Positions 1,859 to 61,386 of a stretch of 64,000 bases of DNA are shown here, piece by piece (position 1 is the stretch's first letter; the number at the start of each line of letters is the position of its first letter). The notes under the pieces were generated by a model. That model was not told the origin of the DNA, ran no database searches, and saw nothing but the letters and a program-made list of their open reading frames with translations. The stretch is from Oscillospiraceae bacterium (lineage in GTDB: Bacteria; Bacillota; Clostridia; Oscillospirales; Ruminococcaceae): assembly GCA_003512525.1 (NCBI GenBank), contig DOQG01000071.1:1587-65586 (forward strand). Direction: 5' to 3'. Both the position numbers and the translations under genes were made by a program.

Positions 1859-3709
1859 ATGCTGAAGGAAAAATTAGACAAAATTTTATTGAAGGTGCAG
1901 AAGCCGTCACGATATATCGGCGGTGAAGTCAATGCGGTCGTTAAGGACAAAAGCAAGGTAGATATACGTTTTGCTTTCTGCTTTCCCGACACTTATGATA
2001 TAGGAATGTCACATCTCGGCATAAAGATACTGTATTCGCTCAAGAACAGTGTGCCCAATTACTGGTGCGAGCGTGTATTTATGCCGCTTCCCGATATGGA
2101 AGAGCAGATGAGGAAGAATGATATCCCGCTGTACGGTCTGGAAAGCCTTGACCCTATCAAGGACTTTGAGTTCATCGGCTTTACGCTCCAGTATGAGCTT
2201 TGCTATACAAATATCCTGTCGATGCTTGACCTTGCGGGTGTGCCTGTATACTCAAAGGACAGAAAGGATCTTTTTCCGATAGTAATGGGCGGCGGTCCTT
2301 GCGTATGTAACGCAGAGCCGATAGCGGATTTCTTTGATTTGTTCGTGCTCGGAGAGGGAGAAGAGGTAAATCTCAAAATGATGCAGCTTGCCGAGAAGTT
2401 CAAGAAGAACGGCGGCACAAAGCAGGAGTATCTTGAGCAGGCGGCTCAGATAGAGGGAATCTATGTTCCTTCGCTCTATGATATAAGTTATAACGAGGAC
2501 GGAACAGTAAAGGCGATAACGCCCAAGAACGGCGCTCCCGCTAAGGTAAAGAAGCAGATAATAGACGATTTTGACAAGGTCTATACTCCCGACAGCTTTG
2601 TTGTACCTTATACTCAGATAGTACACGACAGGTCGGTGGTCGAGGTGCTGAGAGGCTGTATCAGAGGTTGTCGCTTCTGTCAGGCGGGATTTATCTACCG
2701 TCCGTTCAGAGAAAAGTCCAAGGAAACCATCGTAAATCAGGTAAAAAGCCTTACCGAAACGACAGGCTATGACGAGGTGTCGCTTTCATCGTTGTCTACC
2801 AGTGACTACAGCGATATTGAGGGACTGCTGAACGATATAACCGAATATACGGATAAGAAGGGCGTTAATCTGTCGCTCCCGTCACTTCGTATTGACAAAT
2901 TCAGCGACGAGGTCGTAAAGAAGATAAAGAGCGTCAGAAGAAGCGGACTTACATTTGCGCCCGAGGCAGGTTCGCAGCGACTGCGTGACGTTATAAACAA
3001 GAATATCACCGAAGAAGCGATATTCAAGAGCTGCAAGATTGCCTTTGAGGGCGGATACAGCTCGGTAAAGCTGTACTTTATGCTCGGACTTCCGACAGAA
3101 ACGCTTGACGACATAAAGGCGATAAAGGAGCTTGCGGACAAGATAATCGACCTTTATTATAATACGGAGGGCAGAAGCAAGAAGGCGATAAGCATTTCAA
3201 TATCGCTGTCAACATTTATACCAAAGCCGTTTACTCCGTTTGAATACGAACCGCAGGCGACAGAGGAACAGATAAACGAAAGGCAGAAATATCTGCTTGA
3301 TATAATCGGCTCAAAGGGCAGAAGACGTATCGATGTCAGCTGGAGCCACTACGACACGACTATACTTGAAGCGGTGCTCGCAAGAGGTGACAGAAAGCTG
3401 TCCGCCGTTATCTATGAGGCGTGGAAGAACGGCTGTAAGCTAGACGGTTGGAATGAATACTTCAAGCCCGAAATATGGGACGCGGCATTTGAAAAATTCG
3501 GCATAGACAAGGCATTTTATGCTAACCGTAAGCGTGAATACGATGAGATCGCTCCGTGGGAGCATATGGATATGCTGTTTGACCGCAGCTTCCTTGTCAG
3601 GGAGAATATCAAGGCGCACGAGGAAAAGACCACCGCAAACTGCCGTGAAAAGTGTGCAGGCTGCGGCATCAACAAATGCTTAGGAAGGGCTTGCTTTAAA
3701 TATGAATGA
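1859..3709 (+). CDS. TIGR03960-family B12-binding-domain radical SAM protein
   Basis: 616 aa. The N-terminal B12-like domain and a CxxxCxxC-type cluster (CIRGCRFCQAG) match the conserved Firmicutes rSAM of unknown function, and it is followed by its usual partner. Confidence 0.7.
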   Translation: MLKEKLDKILLKVQKPSRYIGGEVNAVVKDKSKVDIRFAFCFPDTYDIGMSHLGIKILYSLKNSVPNYWCERVFMPLPDMEEQMRKNDIPLYGLESLDPIKDFEFIGFTLQYELCYTNILSMLDLAGVPVYSKDRKDLFPIVMGGGPCVCNAEPIADFFDLFVLGEGEEVNLKMMQLAEKFKKNGGTKQEYLEQAAQIEGIYVPSLYDISYNEDGTVKAITPKNGAPAKVKKQIIDDFDKVYTPDSFVVPYTQIVHDRSVVEVLRGCIRGCRFCQAGFIYRPFREKSKETIVNQVKSLTETTGYDEVSLSSLSTSDYSDIEGLLNDITEYTDKKGVNLSLPSLRIDKFSDEVVKKIKSVRRSGLTFAPEAGSQRLRDVINKNITEEAIFKSCKIAFEGGYSSVKLYFMLGLPTETLDDIKAIKELADKIIDLYYNTEGRSKKAISISISLSTFIPKPFTPFEYEPQATEEQINERQKYLLDIIGSKGRRRIDVSWSHYDTTILEAVLARGDRKLSAVIYEAWKNGCKLDGWNEYFKPEIWDAAFEKFGIDKAFYANRKREYDEIAPWEHMDMLFDRSFLVRENIKAHEEKTTANCREKCAGCGINKCLGRACFKYE

Positions 3710-4340
3710 GAATAATATCGCTGTCCGTCTGTTCTTTTCAAAGACGGGCAGAGCAAAATATATATCTGCACTAGACCTTATCACCTGCTTTCAGCGTGCG
3801 ATAAGACGTACCGATATCCCGATATGGCACACGCAGGGCTTCAATCCGCACACTTACGTCAATGTCAATCTGCCGCTTTCGCTCGGAAGCGAGGGCGTGA
3901 ATGAGTCGATGGATATCAAGCTTACCGAGCAGATAGATTTTGATACGGTGCGTGACAAGCTCAATGCGGTTTTACCGCCGGATATCAGAATAATCAGGGC
4001 GGCATTGCCGGTAAAAAAGCACACCGAGATAGAAAAGTCGGTGTATTCGGTAAATATCGTATGTGATTACGATAAACTTGAAGAGTTTATGAAGCTGCCG
4101 TCTGTCGAAGTTGAGAAGAAGACCAAAAAGGGCATAACCACGCTTGATATCAAGCCGTTCACAGAGATAAAGAATTACGAACGCGGGCATTTTACTCTTA
4201 TAATGCCGTCCGGTTGTGACTTTACGCTTAATCCGTCGCTTTTCTTTGACGCATTTGAGAAATTCAGCGGCGAGGAAACCGAAAGACTTGATATAGTACG
4301 AACCGGAATACTCTGTAAAGACGGCACACAGTTTGAATAA
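3702..4340 (+). CDS. TIGR03936-family radical SAM-associated protein (DUF2344)
   Basis: 212 aa, overlaps the upstream rSAM gene by 8 nt. This is the conserved partner of TIGR03960 rSAM proteins. Confidence 0.6.
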   Translation: MNENNIAVRLFFSKTGRAKYISALDLITCFQRAIRRTDIPIWHTQGFNPHTYVNVNLPLSLGSEGVNESMDIKLTEQIDFDTVRDKLNAVLPPDIRIIRAALPVKKHTEIEKSVYSVNIVCDYDKLEEFMKLPSVEVEKKTKKGITTLDIKPFTEIKNYERGHFTLIMPSGCDFTLNPSLFFDAFEKFSGEETERLDIVRTGILCKDGTQFE

Positions 4341-27722: not shown

Positions 27723-27780
27723 ATACCCTCGCGCATAGACTTTACTAAACAAAAAAGACAAGCCGAAAGGATATGAAAAA

Positions 27781-28680
27781 ATGATAGAAAGTAAAACAAA
27801 TGAATATGACGTTGCAATTCGACCGATAGCGAGAGTTTTTCCCGCATTATGTTCTGTGCCGCAGTCGATAAAGCTTGTTGCCGAGGAGATACGGATAAAA
27901 TGCGGCGCGCCGCTTATGATCCGTACAGGTGACCGAAATCATATTATGCAGGTCACTGCTGACAGTGCACTTATCAGTGAGTGTATCAGCGCAATTTGTC
28001 AGAACTCAGTCCATACATATGAAAAGGATATAGCAAACGGCTTTATAACGCTGTACGGCGGTCATAGGGCGGGTATTTGCGGAAGTGCCGTGTATAGCGG
28101 TGACAGACTGCACACAGTGAAGAATATCAGCTCCCTGAATATCCGCATAGCCAGACAGCACTATGGGGCGGCGAGGGACTTGCTACCGCTTTTTGATGAT
28201 GTCGGCAGCAAGGGTCTGATGATAATCGGCAGACCGCTCAGCGGTAAGACTACGGTACTGCGCGATCTATGTCGGGGTATCGGCGGGCGGTTCAGGATAT
28301 CGCTTATTGACGAACGACAGGAGATCGCGGCGGTATATGACGGAAAACCATGCCTTGATGTAGGGCTTATGACGGACGTGTTCAGCGGTTACGGAAAGTC
28401 CGACGGCATAATAAGGGCGATAAGATGTATGTCGCCTGACTATATTGTGACCGATGAGCTCGGAGTGGACGCCGAAAGCATAAGACAGCTTATAAACTCG
28501 GGTGTCGGGCTTATTATGACGGCTCATGCGGACAGTATTGAAACCGCTTTAGCAAACGAGGGGATAAAAGCGATCGTTGACAGTGGAGCAATACAACATA
28601 TTGCACTACTCCGGAATCATAGGATAACCGCCGTGAAGCAGATCATTACGCCCGAAGTTATGGCGGAGTGCACGTTATGA
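27781..28680 (+). CDS. spoIIIAA: stage III sporulation protein AA (ATPase)
   Basis: Walker A GRPLSGKTT; first gene of an eight-gene spoIIIA cluster. Confidence 0.9.
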   Translation: MIESKTNEYDVAIRPIARVFPALCSVPQSIKLVAEEIRIKCGAPLMIRTGDRNHIMQVTADSALISECISAICQNSVHTYEKDIANGFITLYGGHRAGICGSAVYSGDRLHTVKNISSLNIRIARQHYGAARDLLPLFDDVGSKGLMIIGRPLSGKTTVLRDLCRGIGGRFRISLIDERQEIAAVYDGKPCLDVGLMTDVFSGYGKSDGIIRAIRCMSPDYIVTDELGVDAESIRQLINSGVGLIMTAHADSIETALANEGIKAIVDSGAIQHIALLRNHRITAVKQIITPEVMAECTL

Positions 28681-29171
28681 TATGCATTGTCATATTTATG
28701 CTTACAACACTCAGCGGTGCGGCTGTGGGAGCGTATTTTTCGGACAGACTGTCACAACGTTGCGAGGTTATATCGGCGTACATCTCGCTTTTTCGGAATA
28801 TGACGGCTTATGTCACTTATAACGGATATAAGCTTGACGAAATGCTGAAAGCGCAGTGCAAAACATCACGTTGTTATATTTCGGACAAACTGATAGCAGT
28901 CTGCGAAAGTGGCGGAAATATCAGCGAGGAGTGGGATGCTTGTGTGAACACAAGCGGCTGTCTGAAAGCGGAAGAAAGGAATATTTTATCAGAGCTTGGC
29001 AGAAATATCGGTAAAAGCAATACTGAGGGAGAAACTGCCGTTTTAGCTCTTGCACAGACAAGACTTGAGAGCGTGCTTGAAAGCGCAAGCGAAGAAAAAA
29101 AGCGCAAAGGCAGGCTTTACCGCACACTCGGGATAATGCTGGGAGCAGCGGTAGGTATAATGCTGATATAG
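28668..29171 (+). CDS. spoIIIAB: stage III sporulation protein AB
   Basis: Position in the operon, size and N-terminal TM helix. Confidence 0.8.
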   Translation: MHVMICIVIFMLTTLSGAAVGAYFSDRLSQRCEVISAYISLFRNMTAYVTYNGYKLDEMLKAQCKTSRCYISDKLIAVCESGGNISEEWDACVNTSGCLKAEERNILSELGRNIGKSNTEGETAVLALAQTRLESVLESASEEKKRKGRLYRTLGIMLGAAVGIMLI

Positions 29172-29187
29172 AAAGCGGCGGTGTGAT

Positions 29188-29382
29188 ATGAATGTAGATT
29201 TTATTTTCAAGATAGCGGCGATAGGGATCGTCGTAGCCGTGTTAAATCAGCTTTTACAGCGCTCGGGCAGAGAAGAGCAGGCTATGATGACCACTATTGC
29301 GGGGCTTATTGTCGTGCTTATGATGATAGTGACAGAGATAAGCAACCTGTTTGATACGATAAAAAATATCTTCAATCTTTAG
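29188..29382 (+). CDS. spoIIIAC: stage III sporulation protein AC
   Basis: 64-aa two-TM protein in the expected position. Confidence 0.85.
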   Translation: MNVDFIFKIAAIGIVVAVLNQLLQRSGREEQAMMTTIAGLIVVLMMIVTEISNLFDTIKNIFNL

Positions 29383-29401
29383 ACTTCAAAAGGACGGGAA
29401 T

Positions 29402-29788
29402 ATGAACATTATCGCATTTGTCGGTGCGGGAATTATCGGCGCGGTGCTGTCGGTGGTGCTCAGGCAGTACAAGCCTGAGTTCAGCGTGTATATTACGCTT
29501 ATCACGGGAATGCTTATGCTCGGTGCGGCGGTAACGGCGGTAAAGCCTGTTATAGAAACTATATCCGGCTACCTGCAGATAGCAGACCCCGATTCATCAT
29601 ATGCGGACGTGCTTGTGAAATCGCTTGCGGTCTGCTACATTACGCAGATGGCATCAGACAGCTGTGCAGACGCGGGTGAAAAGTCGATAGCCGCAAAGAT
29701 AGAGCTTGCGGGAAAGTTTGCAATAGTATTGCTCGCACTGCCGGTGTTTGACCGCCTTACGGAAGTAATAAAACAGCTATTGCAGTGA
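29402..29788 (+). CDS. spoIIIAD: stage III sporulation protein AD
   Basis: 128-aa membrane protein, GAGIIGAVLSVVLRQ, in the expected position. Confidence 0.85.
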   Translation: MNIIAFVGAGIIGAVLSVVLRQYKPEFSVYITLITGMLMLGAAVTAVKPVIETISGYLQIADPDSSYADVLVKSLAVCYITQMASDSCADAGEKSIAAKIELAGKFAIVLLALPVFDRLTEVIKQLLQ

Positions 29789-29794
29789 GGAAAT

Positions 29795-30904
29795 ATGAAA
29801 GCAATTATAAAAATAATTACGGTGTTTGTCACGGCGCTTGTGATGCTTGCCGTGCCGTTTTGTGCGGGCGCGCAGGACAGCACGATACTTGACGGCTACA
29901 GCGCCGACATACCGCAGGAGCTTGATCGACAGCTGTCGGCGGCGGGAATAACACCGCAAAGCATAGACAGTAATACATTGTCGCTCGATAAGGTGGTAAG
30001 CAATGTAACAGGTATGTTATGGGACAGCATACAAAGTCCGCTTAAGCTGCTTGTGTCACTTCTCGGCATTACGCTTCTTTGCAGTGCAGCAAATGTATTT
30101 GCCGATAATTCCGGCAATCTTAAGACCGTGTTCTCGGTGGTATCAGTACTTGCGTGCAGCACTCTTACCGTTACAGCTGCGAGCGACTCACTGGCGGCGG
30201 CATCAAAGACGCTTGAGTCGGGCAGTGTGTTCCTTGCAAGTTTTATCCCCGCGTTTGCGGGAATACTCGCTACAAGCGGACACGTCACATCTGCCGCAAT
30301 GTTCAATACCGTGGTAATGGGCGGCGCACAGTGCTTTACTCAGCTTGCGTCAAAGATACTTATGCCGGTGTCTATGAGTATACTCGGTGTATCGCTTGCA
30401 GGGAGCGTGTGCAGTGAGCTTAAGCTGTCGGCGCTTGCCGAAGCGGTAAAGAAAACAGTGATATGGATACTCGGACTTATTATGACGATATTCGTGGCAC
30501 TGCTTGCGATGCAGAGCTTTATCACAGTACCGTCAGACAATGTCGGGCTCAAAGCCGCAAGGTTCACTGTGTCGAATGGTGTTCCGTTCATCGGCGGCGC
30601 TGTGTCAGATTCGCTGTCGGTGATGTACGGCGGTATAGGGCTTATCCGTAACAACTTCGGCGTGTTCGGGATAATAGTCGGCGGGGCGTTGATACTGCCG
30701 TCAATATTGTCGGTGCTGTGCTATAAGCTTGCGTTTTCGGTGGCGGCGGCGTTCAGTGACCTGTTCGGTATATCACAGCTCACGGGGCTTCTCAAGTGCG
30801 CCGAGGGGGTTAGCTCTATAATTATGGCGATGCTCGTATCGTTCCTGCTGATGGCGGTAATATCGATATCTCTTATGATATTTATGGCGGGAGGTGCGGT
30901 ATGA
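29795..30904 (+). CDS. spoIIIAE: stage III sporulation protein AE
   Basis: 369-aa polytopic membrane protein with signal peptide, in the expected position. Confidence 0.85.
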   Translation: MKAIIKIITVFVTALVMLAVPFCAGAQDSTILDGYSADIPQELDRQLSAAGITPQSIDSNTLSLDKVVSNVTGMLWDSIQSPLKLLVSLLGITLLCSAANVFADNSGNLKTVFSVVSVLACSTLTVTAASDSLAAASKTLESGSVFLASFIPAFAGILATSGHVTSAAMFNTVVMGGAQCFTQLASKILMPVSMSILGVSLAGSVCSELKLSALAEAVKKTVIWILGLIMTIFVALLAMQSFITVPSDNVGLKAARFTVSNGVPFIGGAVSDSLSVMYGGIGLIRNNFGVFGIIVGGALILPSILSVLCYKLAFSVAAAFSDLFGISQLTGLLKCAEGVSSIIMAMLVSFLLMAVISISLMIFMAGGAV

Positions 30905-31377
30905 ACGAGATAAAGCAGGCGGCGCTCGGTATATGCGTGCTTGCCGCGGCGGCGGGGCTGCTCAGAATGCTGATACCGTGTGAAAAATACAAGTTGCAGA
31001 TAACATTTGCGATAGCGTGTATTTTTTCGGTGTGCCTGATAAATTCGGTCACCGATGTTATCCCCGCACTTACCATAGAAACTAAGATCGCCGATATCCC
31101 TCAGGTGGATTTCAGCGATAAGCTTTCCGAGCAGGCACGCGTCACTGCGGCAAGAGCCGTCAGGGAAAAGGTCGAGGAGCTACTCACCTCGCACGGATTT
31201 GTTTACCGCAAGGTGTATATTACAGCGCATATTGACGGCGCGTTCTGCATATCTATTAGTGAGGTCGAGCTTGTATTTGATGATAATACGGACGATGGAT
31301 ACATCGCCGATGCTGTATCACTTGTACAGTCGGCAGTCGGGAACGATATAAAGGTCAGATACGCAAAAGAAAGGTAG
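30901..31377 (+). CDS. spoIIIAF: stage III sporulation protein AF
   Basis: 158 aa with two N-terminal TM helices, in the expected position. Confidence 0.8.
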   Translation: MNEIKQAALGICVLAAAAGLLRMLIPCEKYKLQITFAIACIFSVCLINSVTDVIPALTIETKIADIPQVDFSDKLSEQARVTAARAVREKVEELLTSHGFVYRKVYITAHIDGAFCISISEVELVFDDNTDDGYIADAVSLVQSAVGNDIKVRYAKER

Positions 31378-31380
31378 ATT

Positions 31381-31722
31381 ATGAAAGAACTGCTGAGATC
31401 CGATAAGCTGCTTAAAATAGCTTTCATTGCCGGGATAGCGGCGATCGCGCTTATCTTTCTTTCAAGCTTCGGCAGCGGGTCAGACACACAGCTTACCGAA
31501 GAACAGCTGCTTGAACAGCGCATAATGCTGATGCTTGCGGCTATGGACGGGATAGATGATGTTCCGAATGTCACGGTCAGGCTTGATGAGGATAAGCACA
31601 CAGTGCTCGGGGTGACGGTGGTATGTCCCGAAGCTTCAAGCAATCGGATAGCCGAAAGGGTAATCAATGCGGTAAAAACGGCACTCGACGTTTCCGCATC
31701 GAGAATATGTATTACAACATAA
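31381..31722 (+). CDS. spoIIIAG: stage III sporulation protein AG (short clostridial form)
   Basis: N-terminal TM plus C-terminal ring-building motif GVTVVCPEA..INAVKTALDVSASRICIT, which resembles the B. subtilis AG C-terminus. Confidence 0.75.
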   Translation: MKELLRSDKLLKIAFIAGIAAIALIFLSSFGSGSDTQLTEEQLLEQRIMLMLAAMDGIDDVPNVTVRLDEDKHTVLGVTVVCPEASSNRIAERVINAVKTALDVSASRICITT

Positions 31723-31736
31723 GTGAGGTATTTGTT

Positions 31737-32342
31737 ATGAGAAGACCGAGAATCAATCTTATACTTGGCAAAAAGCATCTTGTTGCGGCAGGTCTGGCGC
31801 TTGTGCTTGCAGTCGGACTGTATGCCAATTTTGCCATAGGGAGTAACGTGAGCAGTAAGAGCGCATCGGGGGATAACTACGGCGATACAAGGCTTGTATC
31901 AAATGAAAACGACAATACGGGCAAAGTGTCCGACAAAAAGGACAGCGATATTGTTTCCGCTTCTGCCAATACCGAAAAGGTAGCCGACAGCAGTGAGGAA
32001 TATTTTGCAAAGGCGCGCATTGACAAGCAGGCAAGCAGAGAAGAGGCTAAGGAAACGCTCAAGAGTATTTACGGCGGCGGAGATATGACCAAAGACGAAC
32101 TTGCGGTAGTCGCACAAGACGCACAGCAGCTGACCGACCTTATGGAGGCTGAAAACAAGATCGAAACAACGCTTAAGGCACAGGGCTTTGAAGATGTGCT
32201 TTGCTACCTAAGCGATAACAGTGCGAATATCATTGTGAAGTCGCAGGGACTCGATACCGCTCAGGCGGCACAGATAAAGAGCGCATTGCTATCTGAGGTC
32301 GAGGTCGCAGGGGAGAATATTACTATTGTGGAAGTGCAGTAA
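31737..32342 (+). CDS. spoIIIAH: stage III sporulation protein AH
   Basis: N-terminal TM anchor and a charged extracytoplasmic domain; last gene of the operon; RBS GTGAGGT before the ATG at 31737. Confidence 0.75.
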   Translation: MRRPRINLILGKKHLVAAGLALVLAVGLYANFAIGSNVSSKSASGDNYGDTRLVSNENDNTGKVSDKKDSDIVSASANTEKVADSSEEYFAKARIDKQASREEAKETLKSIYGGGDMTKDELAVVAQDAQQLTDLMEAENKIETTLKAQGFEDVLCYLSDNSANIIVKSQGLDTAQAAQIKSALLSEVEVAGENITIVEVQ

Positions 32343-58505: not shown

Positions 58506-58629
58506 GTCTCCTTCTTCGCATAAATTCTGTCTTTATCCTTATAATTATACTCATTTTCTTCGATTTTTACTAGATTATATTTAGATAATTTTGCACAAGT
58601 GATAAAAGTTTCGCTTGTCTATTTTTCAC

Positions 58630-58661
58630 AAAAAAATCGGGAGTCCCCGCAGGGACTCCCG
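58630..58661 (-). terminator. rho-independent terminator directly after the 47-aa sORF
   Basis: cgggagtccc/gggactcccg stem followed by ATTTTTTT on the - strand. Confidence 0.8.
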
Positions 58662-58676
58662 GTTGAGTTGGCGTTA

Positions 58677-58820
58677 TCAGCAGCCGCATCCTCCGCAGTT
58701 ATTGCCGCAACCGCCGCCGCAGCCGCAGTCGTTATTGCCGCAGCCGCCGCTGTTACCACAGCAGGCAAATAAGAGAATGAGAATAATGATCCACCAGCAA
58801 GAGTTGTTTGAACAGAACAT
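58677..58820 (-). CDS. 47-aa Cys/Gly-rich small membrane peptide (MFCSNNSCWWIIILILLFACCGNSGGCGNNDCGCGGGCGNNCGGCGC)
   Basis: RBS GGAGGA, 8-nt spacer, ATG at 58820; TGA stop at 58677-58679; strong terminator 15 nt downstream. Not in the ORF track because it is under 60 aa; the two longer overlapping ORFs in other frames look spurious. Confidence 0.6.
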   Translation of the reverse strand: MFCSNNSCWWIIILILLFACCGNSGGCGNNDCGCGGGCGNNCGGCGC

Positions 58821-58980
58821 AATATGTTTCCTCCGTTTAGTATTTGAGCATAGCCGTTTGAGCGTTGCTCATAGTACATAATATGCCGTTGGTTAAAATG
58901 TGTTACTGCTTTTTACTTGTCCGCTGTGATTAAAGAGTAAAAATCTGCCTATAATTGTATATGAGAAAGGCGGTCATATT

Positions 58981-61386
58981 ATGGTATTCAACGGTTTTAC
59001 AGATAAAGCTAACGATGCACTTACCTGCGCTCTGACCGGTGCTATGAGTATGGGGCATACCTATGTCGGCAGTGAGCATATTCTGTACGGATTATGTGCT
59101 TGTAAGGGCGGGGTGGCATCTATGGTACTTGAACAGAGCGGTGTAACTTGCGCCGCCGTTATTTCGCGCATAAACTCGCTTATCGGAAAAGGTCTGCCGA
59201 CAACGCTGGATGTATCGGATTTTACGCCGAGGAGTAAGCGTATACTTGAAGAGTCTGTGTTGATAGCAAGAAATTCGGGCAGGAATGTTGCAGGCACAGA
59301 GCATATTCTGCGTGCAATAATGCGTGACAGTGAATGCTATGCCTCTGTGTTTCTGCGTGAGATGGGGCTTGACTGCGAAACTGTTATTAACAGGTGTGCA
59401 GATCCGCTTAAGAAAACCACACAAGTAAAAAGCACAGATACCAAGAACAGCAAAGAATTGTCTTCCACTCTTGCAAAGTACGGCAGAGATCTTACGGCGG
59501 CGGCACGCAAAGGTAAGCTTGATCCTTGCCTTTGCCGCAAAAAGGAAACAGGTAGGGTTATCGAGATACTTCTCAGGCGCACAAAGAATAACCCGTGTCT
59601 GGTAGGTGAGCCGGGTGTAGGAAAAACGGCTATCGCAGAGGGGCTTGCAATAAGGATCGCAGAGGGTAAAGTTCCTGACGAACTTCAGACAAAGCGCATA
59701 TATATGCTTGATATAACAGCGATGCTAGCCGGTGCAAAATATCGCGGAGATTTTGAAGAGCGGTTGAAAGCCGTATTTGATGAGATAATAAATGACGGCA
59801 ATATTATAGTGTTCATTGATGAAATTCACAATATCGTCGGTGCAGGTGCGGCTGAGGGTGCTATAGATGCGGCAAACATACTTAAGCCTATGCTTGCAAG
59901 GGGAGAAGTAAGGCTTATCGGAGCTACCACTAATTCAGAGTACAGGAGATATATTGAAAAGGACGCGGCACTTGAACGTCGTTTGCAACCTGTAAGTGTA
60001 TCGGAGCCTGATGTGAACGAAACAATAACTATCCTGAATGGGCTTAAAGGACGTTATGAGAGTTATCATAGGGTAAAAATTACCGACGGGGCGATAAAAG
60101 CGGCTGTTGAGCTTTCGGTACGGTATATAAACGATCGTTTCCTGCCCGATAAAGCGATTGATCTTATAGATGAAGCTTCGGCAAAAGTGAGAGCTTCACA
60201 AACAATAAAAGGAGAAACGGCAAATCGGAATAACAGATTAAAAGAGCTGTCTGAGAGAAAAATAAAAGCAATAAATGATAAGGATTTTGCACTTGCGTTA
60301 AGACTCCGTGAAGAGGAAAGGGCAGTTGCGGCAGGTGTACAGGCTGACAGCCCGTTCGCTATATTGACAGAGAAAGATATAGCCGATGTTGTGACAAGTT
60401 ATACAGGTATACCTTTAGACTATGATGGCGACAACGCTAAAAAGCTTGTTGAGCTTGAAAGAATACTGTCAGAAAGGATAACAGGTCAGACTGAGGCGAT
60501 ATCAGCTGTTGCAAATGCCGTAAGAAGAGGTCGCTCCGGGCTTTCCGATGAACATCGTCCTATAGGCTCATTTATTTTCCTTGGTACAAGCGGAGTAGGC
60601 AAGACTAAGTGCTGTAAGGAGCTGGCGGGAGCTTTATTCGGTGATGAAAAGGCTTTGATACGTTTTGATATGTCAGAGTACAGCGAAAAGCACTCAGTAT
60701 CAAAGCTTATAGGTGCTCCTGCGGGATATGTGGGGTATGAGGACGGAGGAAAGCTGATTGACAGAGTAAGAGGCAAGCCCTACAGCGTTGTATTATTTGA
60801 TGAAATAGAAAAAGCCCATCCCGATATATTTGATATTTTGTTACAGGTGCTTGATGACGGACATCTGACCGACTCTGCAGGAAGAACGGCGGATTTCACA
60901 AACACGGTTATTATAATGACAGGAAATATAGGAAGCAGACTTATAAGCGGAGGCAAAAACAAGTTAGGCTTCTGCACTCAGCAAAGACAAACAGTAATAT
61001 CAGAGCTAATAAGAAATGAACTTAAGGAATATTTCCGACCTGAATTTCTAAGCAGGGTAGACGAAGTTATAGTATTCAATGAGCTTGGTATGAACGATTT
61101 TAAGCAGATATGCGGCAATATGCTTGCAAAGCTCGCAAAGAGGTGTAGTCGGCAGGGAGTGTCGCTGTCGTGGAGTGAGCGTTTGTCAGACAGAATATGC
61201 GCTGATGCGGAAAAAATGCATGAAGGTGCGCGACCTATAGCAAAGCTGATCGATAAGAATGTTATGGACCGTATATCCGACGGTATAATAAAAGGTGAAT
61301 TTTCAGACGGCGATGAAATATATGCCGATATTTCGGATAGCGGCAATTATACTGTGAGAAAAATGTGCGCGGATAAGCTGGGATAA
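58981..61386 (+). CDS. clpC: ATP-dependent Clp protease ATP-binding subunit ClpC (class III AAA+ chaperone)
   Basis: Two Clp_N repeats, two AAA+ modules ([16 protein letters not shown]), UVR-like segment between them. No ctsR or mcsAB upstream. Confidence 0.85.

Follow-up and report, generated by a model that had tools for sequence, protein, structure and literature searches.

Does a short GC-rich stretch between typA and a ClpC-like gene of an Oscillospiraceae bacterium encode a protein, and what would such a protein do? The stretch lies at 58677-58820 on the minus strand of a 64,000-nucleotide piece of contig DOQG01000071.1 (assembly GCA_003512525.1), the whole of which is called the window in the following. 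An earlier note, made from the letters of the window, had proposed at this place an unannotated gene for a 47-amino-acid (aa) membrane peptide rich in Cys and Gly, and had considered a metal-binding peptide, a small spore or envelope protein cross-linked by disulfides, or the precursor of a ribosomally synthesized and post-translationally modified peptide (RiPP). That the 47-codon open reading frame (ORF) is a real gene of a conserved family we regard as practically certain. Judged from sequence and with a probability of roughly 55 %, its product is rich in thiols and has a structural or redox role in the outer layers of the spore or in the outer forespore membrane of Oscillospiraceae.

Conservation of the 47-codon frame

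Relatives were collected by a word-indexed search of 5.8 billion proteins and by an exhaustive profile search of 1.84 billion cluster representatives. The former returned 34 small proteins sharing a three-part layout, the latter at least 202 clusters of relatives (50 % identity) at E ≤ 0.001. Most members have 40-55 aa and share an N-terminus of Cys, Gly and Asn, a WWIIILILLF helix and a CGNN...CGCDNNCGCC tail, and the consensus of the family reads MCNNG-FGGNN-C-WWIIILILLF-CCCGNG...CGC-D-NN-CGCC. The named carriers were Oscillospiraceae, Faecousia, Ruminococcus and metagenome-assembled genomes labelled 'Clostridia', all from gut samples. A metagenome scan with the exact DNA pattern of the helix segment yielded 107 further stretches; a degenerate peptide pattern applied in the same kind of scan was too loose and returned no relatives. 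A peptide identical to that of the window is encoded in the metagenome stretches L070 and L089. The family is a large, unnamed one of tiny Cys/Gly/Asn-rich proteins of Oscillospiraceae-type gut Clostridia, and with 34 search relatives and 202 clusters the expectation of the earlier note, that reading frame and Cys pattern would be kept in relatives, was borne out.

The decisive test was the pattern of variation within the frame, for which mainly synonymous changes and indels in multiples of three had been predicted. Between the window and locus L007 the 47-codon frame had 12 synonymous and 2 non-synonymous codon changes, plus an indel of 9 nucleotides (nt). In the family frame, 18 synonymous changes and 1 non-synonymous change separated L014 from L016, and 8-10 synonymous stood against 2-4 non-synonymous changes in the L002 group. 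Every indel among the compared relatives was a multiple of three. Two longer ORFs overlap the gene, one Ala-rich and one Pro-rich, and reread in the Ala-rich frame the same substitutions lost this character: those between the window and L007 became 2 synonymous and 13 non-synonymous, those between the window and L045 0 synonymous and 11 non-synonymous. The start codon (ATG) of the Ala-rich ORF was lost in L007. Only the 47-codon frame was open in all 18 genome loci, with stops in the Ala-rich frame of 10 of the 17 relatives and in the Pro-rich frame of 9 of the 17. The prediction thus passed its test, and the description of the longer ORFs as implausible was correct. Purifying selection in the 47-codon frame is evident, as are the conservation of the family and, as described below, that of its promoter motif. 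A Shine-Dalgarno sequence preceded all 95 of 95 family genes and a GC-rich hairpin followed within 80 nt past the stop codon in 90 of 95; that relatives share these gene features is far beyond chance. The parts of the locus in the window are the following.

58677..58820, minus strand: coding sequence for 47 aa, MFCSNNSCWWIIILILLFACCGNSGGCGNNDCGCGGGCGNNCGGCGC, with ATG at 58820 and TGA at 58679-58677
58834-58829, minus strand: Shine-Dalgarno sequence GGAGGA, with an 8-nt spacer to the ATG
58628..58661, minus strand: intrinsic terminator, stem CGGGAGTCCC/GGGACTCCCG, loop TGCG, then ATTTTTTTGT
58902..58903, minus strand: 'AC', putative -35 element of a sigma-K-type promoter in the context GTAACACATTTT, 16 nt ahead of the -10 box
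58878..58885, minus strand: -10 box CATATTAT of the type of mother-cell sigma factors, from the matrix score and the published -10 sequence
58845..58871, minus strand: hairpin UGAGCA...UGCUCA at the predicted 5' end of the transcript, folded on locus L070, which has the same leader as the window
58619..58879, minus strand: spurious Ala-rich ORF of 86 aa in the +1 frame, reported by public gene callers in place of the true gene
58615..58881, plus strand: Pro-rich ORF of 88 aa, overlapping the 47-codon ORF
Residues 1-8, 8-22 and 20-47 of the product: Cys/Asn N-terminus, helix and Cys/Gly/Asn tail

These coordinates agree with the earlier note in the ORF and its sequence, in the ribosome-binding site with its spacer and in the position of the terminator 15 nt past the stop codon. 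The terminator stem (58661-58638) comprises 10 base pairs, 8 of them G-C, closed by a 4-nt loop, and ATTTTTTT is located 3' of the stem. The locally raised GC content was confirmed with 66 % in 58650-58749 and 66.7 % over codons 20-47, compared to 44.4 % for the whole window. The peptide contains 11 Cys (23 %), 12 Gly and 7 Asn. The Cys are at positions 3, 8, 20, 21, 27, 32, 34, 38, 42, 45 and 47; thus the total of 12 given earlier has to be corrected, while the nine assigned to the tail are present from residue 20 onward. Both longer ORFs were found with the expected lengths and compositions, the Pro-rich one on the plus and the Ala-rich one on the minus strand, yet the former does not start inside the terminator, as had been stated: its start is 13 nt beyond the T-tail, and the frame then reads back through the terminator. 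Besides 58677..58820 on the minus strand, the window contained no second ORF of the Cys/Gly-rich kind.

The length of the protein varies among close relatives. Strains with identical upstream DNA carry a 27-nt unit for CGNNCGGCG once, twice or three times in frame, resulting in 45, 54 and 63 aa in L044, L053 and L064, respectively; further copy variants are L066, L087, L092, L099 and L102. This variation in copy number is a repeat slippage that always keeps the frame. Tandem fusions, with two or three full units of N-terminus, helix and tail in one ORF, were present in L014, L016, P0035, P0052, P0063 and P0170. The ratio of 18 to 1 between L014 and L016, given above, means that the two-helix form is also under purifying selection.

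The gene in public catalogues

For the exact 47-aa product no called gene is on record, nor does it occur among about 15 billion catalogued proteins. What the catalogues list is the 86-aa Ala-rich ORF, from 278 contigs (NCBI, JGI, Logan, ENA) and in a cluster of 48 members; the 88-aa Pro-rich ORF is not catalogued. The claim that the gene is unannotated therefore holds in a sharper form, with the true product missing and a wrong-frame ORF recorded. Gene callers in the lineage of the window favour the longer GC-rich frame, the ATG of which is located inside the leader. This wrong call is systematic and caused by the GC-rich codon repeats; repeats of this kind regularly mislead gene callers where the genome is AT-rich. 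As the wrong-frame ORF is catalogued and the true product omitted, homology-based surveys and surveys of small proteins miss the gene. Relatives that were called correctly are unnamed or 'hypothetical protein'.

Even among the catalogued relatives, many carry spurious N-terminal extensions (MSGK..., MECK..., ...ITWNE...), which are the translated conserved promoter and leader. Aberrant C-termini were seen in the catalogued members P0136 and P0153 and also, e.g., in P0065, P0066, P0071 and P0079. Some members end in ...LLYTSDAADEL or ...LSLIHISEPTRPY, endings which we take to be translated sequencing-adapter DNA, and others continue in unrelated frames. In the GC-rich repeat tail, assemblies seem to be interrupted or to shift frame.

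The searchable curated families, structures and papers did not cover these proteins. Pfam and NCBIfam gave no match for the peptide of the window alone at E ≤ 10 and no family for 94 clean members at E ≤ 1, just weak look-alikes of transmembrane helices, among which was a weak similarity of the helix to the short TatA helix and to ODV-E18 (E ≥ 0.015). A profile search of the PDB revealed no relative, with chance matches to p53 only. In the literature on the helix sequence and on small Cys-rich proteins of Oscillospiraceae no description was found. At the level of RNA, all Rfam matches were far below the gathering scores, and a known small RNA or riboswitch was rejected on these grounds.

Promoter, leader and genomic setting

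An alignment of the upstream DNA of the family genes revealed a conserved AC, 16-17 variable bases and CATAnnnT, located 42-75 nt ahead of the ATG. Counts were made on 55 de-replicated upstream regions from unrelated neighbourhoods, with dinucleotide shuffles as the null. The strict form AC-N16/17-CATANNNT was present in 37 of the 55 regions, compared to a mean of 0.98 and a maximum of 6 in the shuffles, and the loose form ([CA]ATA) in 50 of 55, compared to 2.75. The spacer from the AC to the -10 box had 16 nt in 38 sites and 17 nt in 12, and the first base of the box was C in 37, A in 16, T in 6 and G in 1 of the regions. The regular expression had forced the AC; in a repeat analysis anchored on the -10 box alone, A (40 of 76) and C (55 of 76) still emerged at positions -18 and -17. 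None of 50 sites had a TTG directly 5' of the AC, which argues against a -35 element for sigma-A.

A genome-wide study of sporulation in C. difficile found the -10 sequence to be common to sigma-E and sigma-K promoters, the -35 element being 'AC' for sigma-K and 'ATA' for sigma-E, and termed CATATTAT 'a canonical -10 box for mother cell sigma factors' (PMC3789822). The element in the window, GTAACACATTTT-N-CATATTAT at 58906-58874 with a 16-nt spacer, has both the AC at -35 and a CATA-type -10 box within the 16-18 nt spacing of the sigma-K class. With a weight matrix built without the window's own lineage it scored 26.9 bits, while the runner-up in the 64 kb reached 13.8 bits and the best of 20 shuffled windows 17.7 bits. 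A scan of the window for the bare CATANNNT was too unspecific (213 matches, 160 expected).

Sporulation genes are also located in the window. At 27781-30904 on the plus strand spoIIIAA, AB, AD and AE were identified as clear best matches with NCBIfam scores below the equivalog cut-offs; the host therefore has endospore machinery. On the strength of the sigma-K-type promoter together with these genes, the peptide gene was assigned to the late mother-cell (sigma-K) programme, an assignment drawn from DNA sequence; that it is a sigma-K or mother-cell sporulation gene appears quite probable. The spoIIIA operon probably reaches to about 32342, and two ORFs without a family match, 30901-31377 and 31623-32342, may represent divergent spoIIIAF-AH. 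The DNA ahead of spoIIIAA, which served as a comparison for sigma-E within the window, has a -10 box of the mother-cell type, CATAGACT, at 27734-27741, with no 'AC' at -35 and no convincing -35 element identified.

Between promoter and ribosome-binding site, a hairpin started 5-10 nt past the -10 box in nearly all of 50 de-replicated leaders and is thus at the expected 5' end of the mRNA. Its stem differs between lineages (GAGCG/CGCTC, GCGGC/GCCGC, ACGGC/GCCGT, AAGC/GCTT). Folds of the single sequences had a mean z of -2.0 compared to shuffles, with 74 % below -1; on a MAFFT alignment in which the 3' arms were misplaced, a test for covariation with RNAalifold yielded no pairs. In Firmicutes, 5'-terminal stem-loops shield transcripts from ribonucleases that depend on the 5' end, and the position of the hairpin suggests a stabiliser of the mRNA. 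A subgroup with long leaders (MCCGNNGGFGGGCWWIIILILLLCCCC..., 65-75 aa, with CCCCC runs) has a GC-rich leader and its promoter 95-165 nt ahead of the ATG (L019-L025, L034, L035, L041, L043, L047, L056, L074, L083, L091, L098, L105, L107, L123 and L124). Two copies of the direct repeat ccggtctctgtgaccgg flank a GC hairpin in this long leader, downstream of the sigma-K-like promoter and ahead of the Shine-Dalgarno sequence. Rfam contained no match for this subgroup, the leader of which may be a regulatory one.

The genes around the peptide gene are not conserved with it. Its neighbours in the window are those for TypA, downstream on the same strand, and for a ClpC-like ATPase, an arrangement shared at 2 of 17 genome loci only. 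Other relatives have housekeeping neighbours, namely ctsR-mcsAB-clpC and glnA at L125 and a rex-like gene at L126. Neither in the window nor within ± 8 kb at L125-L127 was a maturase found near the gene, and no metal transporter or metalloregulator was a conserved neighbour in the contexts examined. The gene is, with its own promoter and terminator, a stand-alone transcription unit.

In four lineages (window, L004, L007, L125) the peptide gene is divergent from a clpC-type gene. At L125 this belongs to a full ctsR-mcsA-mcsB-clpC operon; in the window the ClpC-like gene (58981-61386, plus strand, 801 aa) starts 160 nt from the peptide ATG with no ctsR between. The adjacency may be a coincidence or remnant synteny. 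Locus L007 is a 3-kb contig (CAVJKI010000253.1) labelled Sodaliphilus sp. that is syntenic with the window, with TypA of 99 % and ClpC of 77 % identity next to the peptide gene. Its bin is a Bacteroidales genome, but the contig most likely comes from Oscillospiraceae and was put in the wrong bin. The sole contig of a viral collection with a family gene, L128 (IMGVR_UViG_3300031555_006911, 1000-1200), has the same promoter-like element (AACC-N-AATAGTAT) and the same leader hairpin as chromosomal copies; although predicted to be viral, it probably consists of host DNA. With this one viral contig against 107 metagenome stretches, an origin from phages or mobile elements was rejected. Far from the peptide gene, at 1859-4340 on the plus strand, a B12-binding radical SAM protein of TIGR03960 (1859-3709, 1015 bits) lies directly ahead of its partner of TIGR03936. 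The two form a conserved pair of unknown function, 55 kb away and with no sign of a link.

Possible role in the spore and rival explanations

A late mother-cell Cys-rich spore protein is a known kind of protein. The form seen here would be new: about 45 aa with a hydrophobic helix and an uncharged Cys/Gly/Asn tail, confined to Oscillospiraceae-type Clostridia and largely invisible in annotation. With an alignment of 94 sequences, AlphaFold2 predicted one helix of 15 residues (8-22, pLDDT about 76) and an unstructured tail of low confidence. The 93 clean members consist of 20.6 % Cys, 19.5 % Gly, 18.6 % Asn, 9.3 % Ile, 7.2 % Leu and 5.2 % Trp; there is practically no Pro, and charged residues are very rare, acidic ones averaging 1.3. 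The best-conserved part of the tail is the C-terminal CGC-D/E-N-N-CGC(C) block. From the predicted helix, a membrane location may be assumed; the helix could act as a short anchor in the membrane or as a core for self-association.

From these features and the promoter we infer sigma-K dependence, expression in the mother cell, location at the spore and thiol cross-linking. In late sporulation, RNA polymerase with sigma-K would transcribe the gene in the mother cell from AC-N16-CATATTAT. The mRNA would be short and stable, with a 5' stem-loop that is probably protective, a strong ribosome-binding site and its own terminator. The Cys-flanked WWIIILILLF helix would insert into the outer forespore membrane or a hydrophobic sublayer of the coat, or drive self-association, and would bear an uncharged, unstructured tail of about 60 % Cys, Gly and Asn ending in the conserved block. 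Packed on the developing spore, many copies could make up a layer dense in thiols. After lysis of the reducing mother cell, disulfide or metal-thiolate cross-links might harden or chemically buffer the outer layers. The proposal of a small spore or envelope protein cross-linked by disulfides, one of several in the earlier note, gains specific support from the conserved sigma-K-type promoter and the sporulation genes of the window.

The design principle, by analogy, is the same as in the larger proteins CdeC, CdeM, CsxA, CotY and ExsY, with unrelated sequence: the 94 members had no homology to their families in Pfam and NCBIfam at E ≤ 1. The proteins CdeM and CdeC of the exosporium of C. difficile resemble the family in being rich in Cys, without a recognisable domain, restricted to a lineage and composed of low-complexity repeats of Asn, Gly and Cys, and they have been proposed to act in the outermost layer of the spore through disulfide cross-links. 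They differ in size and Cys content (161 and 405 aa with about 9 % Cys, compared to 47 aa with 23 %), lack a hydrophobic helix and have charged repeats (RREA, KKNKRR). The genes CD1067 and CD1581 are presumably cdeC and cdeM. Expression depended strongly on sigma-K: without a functional sigK, CD1067 dropped to 0.03 and CD1581 to 0.01 of the wild type (PMC3789822). CdeC (405 aa, 9 % Cys) and CdeM (161 aa, 8.7 % Cys), the latter with the repeats NGNNGGNNNNC and CNCCNCC, are both needed for the exosporium of C. difficile (PMC6101409). As for the class of Cys-rich outer-layer proteins, the high Cys content is plain in the peptide (11 of 47 residues) and the family (mean 20.6 %), and the late timing is read from the promoter.

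Similar lattices on spores arise by self-assembly from Cys-rich proteins that are unrelated to each other (PMC7333573). CsxA, CotY, CotZ and ExsY are, like the proposed product, late mother-cell Cys-rich proteins that stabilise layers by disulfides (PMC7333573, PMC4950064), but they are folded, much larger than 47 aa and form two-dimensional hexagonal lattices. The peptide is too small and disordered for an architecture of the CsxA type and has a membrane-like helix instead. In size and layout YjcZ of Bacillus (TIGR01732, 'tiny_TM_bacill') comes close: about 30-50 aa, associated with sporulation and often in multiple copies, with Met, a Gly/Cys/Tyr-rich stretch and one very hydrophobic helix. 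YjcZ essentially ends after the helix, whereas the family adds a Cys/Gly/Asn tail of 20-40 residues, and the carriers are Bacillaceae as opposed to Oscillospiraceae. The TIGR01732 model (cut-off 21.35 bits) matched 0 of 94 members at E ≤ 1, compared to 43-56 bits for YjcZ-like controls, and an hhalign comparison reached a probability of 7.7 %.

Several points weigh against the assignment to the spore. The hosts are strict anaerobes, so the formation of disulfides would need exposure to an oxidant. No Lys or Arg is present in 44 of 93 members, the helix at residues 8-22 lacks positive charges at its flanks, and in 224 of 258 members the strictly hydrophobic run extends over just 10-11 residues; insertion of the helix into a membrane is thus doubtful, and its topology is not predictable from charge. 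Sigma-K dependence is deduced from a sequence motif, and as sigma-E and sigma-K share the -10 box the call hangs on 'AC' or 'ATA' at -35. Of 121 matrix hits in 870 kb of loci, 118 precede family genes, in scanned DNA without known sigma-K targets; the matrix finds family genes only and thus provides no independent validation of the sigma-K assignment. The upstream regions of homologous genes are themselves homologous, hence the enrichment reflects a conserved element and not independent recurrences. Five of the 55 upstream regions had no motif at the standard spacing.

A membrane-anchored peptide similar to metallothionein, with a tail that binds Zn, Cu, Cd or a cluster of the Fe-S type for storage, detoxification or delivery in sporulation or otherwise, is unlikely, metal binding as such being neither supported nor refuted. 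The tail has dense CxC and CC motifs with the conserved CGC-D/E-N-N-CGC(C) block and is without a predicted fold, as expected of a structure that depends on metal. Metal binding is compatible with the sigma-K promoter and overlaps with the spore reading when metal-thiolates take the place of disulfides. Metallothioneins, the high-cysteine proteins of insect chorion and the high-Gly-Cys keratin-associated proteins are rich in CxC and CC and of Gly-rich low complexity; in chorion and keratin-associated proteins Cys-Gly arms surround a hydrophobic core and disulfides harden an extracellular shell. These proteins are eukaryotic and unrelated to the family, so that the likeness is compositional convergence only: neither a Pfam metallothionein nor a chorion model matched, and no metallothionein or metal-binding family was found for the 94 members at E ≤ 1. 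The neighbourhoods, with no conserved metal transporter or metalloregulator, do not favour metal handling either. The number and spacing of Cys in the tail vary freely, including the strain-level repeat expansion, and therefore a bulk or structural role fits better than a defined metal site.

A small membrane toxin, either of a type I toxin-antitoxin system or similar to holins and, e.g., aiding the lysis of the mother cell, would agree with about 45 aa, one hydrophobic helix, a stand-alone gene, a strong Shine-Dalgarno sequence and a structured 5' leader, and the late mother-cell timing would suit lysis. Type I toxins and holins typically have charged, usually basic, termini. The 44 members lacking Lys and Arg, and a Cys/Gly/Asn tail without a counterpart in toxin or holin families, make this function improbable; neither a standout antisense pair of promoter and terminator nor a match to a known small RNA family was detected, tandem fusions of two or three units would be unusual, and the gene was present on only one of the viral contigs scanned.

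More improbable still is the precursor of a Cys-modified RiPP (similar to ranthipeptides or SCIFF, forming thiazoles, or similar to lanthipeptides) with its enzymes encoded elsewhere, an idea that lost support in this analysis. A small ORF with many Cys-Gly repeats suggests it, as does the radical SAM gene at 1859-3709, and such repeats are also typical of precursors of heterocycloanthracin or SCIFF. Like the family, the precursors of SCIFF/ranthipeptides and heterocycloanthracin have about 45 aa and a C-terminal half rich in Cys and Gly, and occur in Clostridia and Bacilli. They have, however, an adjacent maturase, a radical SAM enzyme or a cyclodehydratase, and a hydrophilic leader, and the family has neither. 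No precursor model, including those of SCIFF and heterocycloanthracin, matched the 94 members. That no maturase is adjacent, as the earlier note had seen, proved right for the window and two relatives; in these three contexts, proteases and exporters were absent next to the gene as well. The radical SAM protein of the window, with its partner, is not of a RiPP maturase family. In place of a leader-like segment, 7-15 residues precede the very hydrophobic helix, and the helix, not a recognition sequence, is the most conserved part. A sigma-K promoter would be unexpected.

That the protein is the precursor of a lipoprotein or of a secreted peptide, with the helix as a signal peptide cleaved before a Cys and the tail released or anchored by lipid, is hardly credible. 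The junction of helix and tail, often L-F-[S/A/C]-C, is superficially similar to a lipobox, but the lipobox [LVI][ASTVI][GAS]C was present in 7 of 258 members and an n-region Lys or Arg in 10 of 258, and the common junctions LFCNC and LFNCG break the -1 rule; a lipoprotein or secretory signal was rejected. The last alternative, that the 47-codon ORF is no protein gene and that one of the longer ORFs is the product, as the calls of the Ala-rich one on 278 contigs would have it, or that the DNA is a Cys-sensing leader peptide/attenuator or a small RNA for typA, which follows the terminator on the same strand, is refuted by the frame-specific substitution pattern: the Ala-rich frame accumulates non-synonymous changes and stops and loses its ATG, the Pro-rich frame is broken and uncatalogued, Rfam has no match, an attenuator would not conserve the helix of the peptide, and the genes downstream differ between loci, with typA in 2 of 17.

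Oscillospiraceae and related Clostridia are abundant gut commensals which pass between hosts as oxygen-resistant spores. They are poorly studied, and most of the proteins that form the coat and exosporium in Bacillus and C. difficile are not conserved in them. A tentative extension of the spore reading, with a low chance of holding, is a minimal building block of the spore envelope: a helix in the outer forespore membrane or a coat sublayer that displays a 'carpet' of thiols, which oxygen would trigger to harden by disulfides or metal-thiolates or to act as a redox buffer. If this is true, the carpet would stay reduced in the gut and link up when the spore meets oxygen outside the host, and the hardened layer would aid the aerotolerance and transmission of Oscillospiraceae spores. 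The family could then replace the missing coat-anchoring peptides of the Bacillus type, with the repeat number of a strain tuning the thickness of the layer. A widespread, strongly conserved and probably sigma-K-driven protein is in any case a concrete, testable candidate for a structural or redox-active component of these spores.

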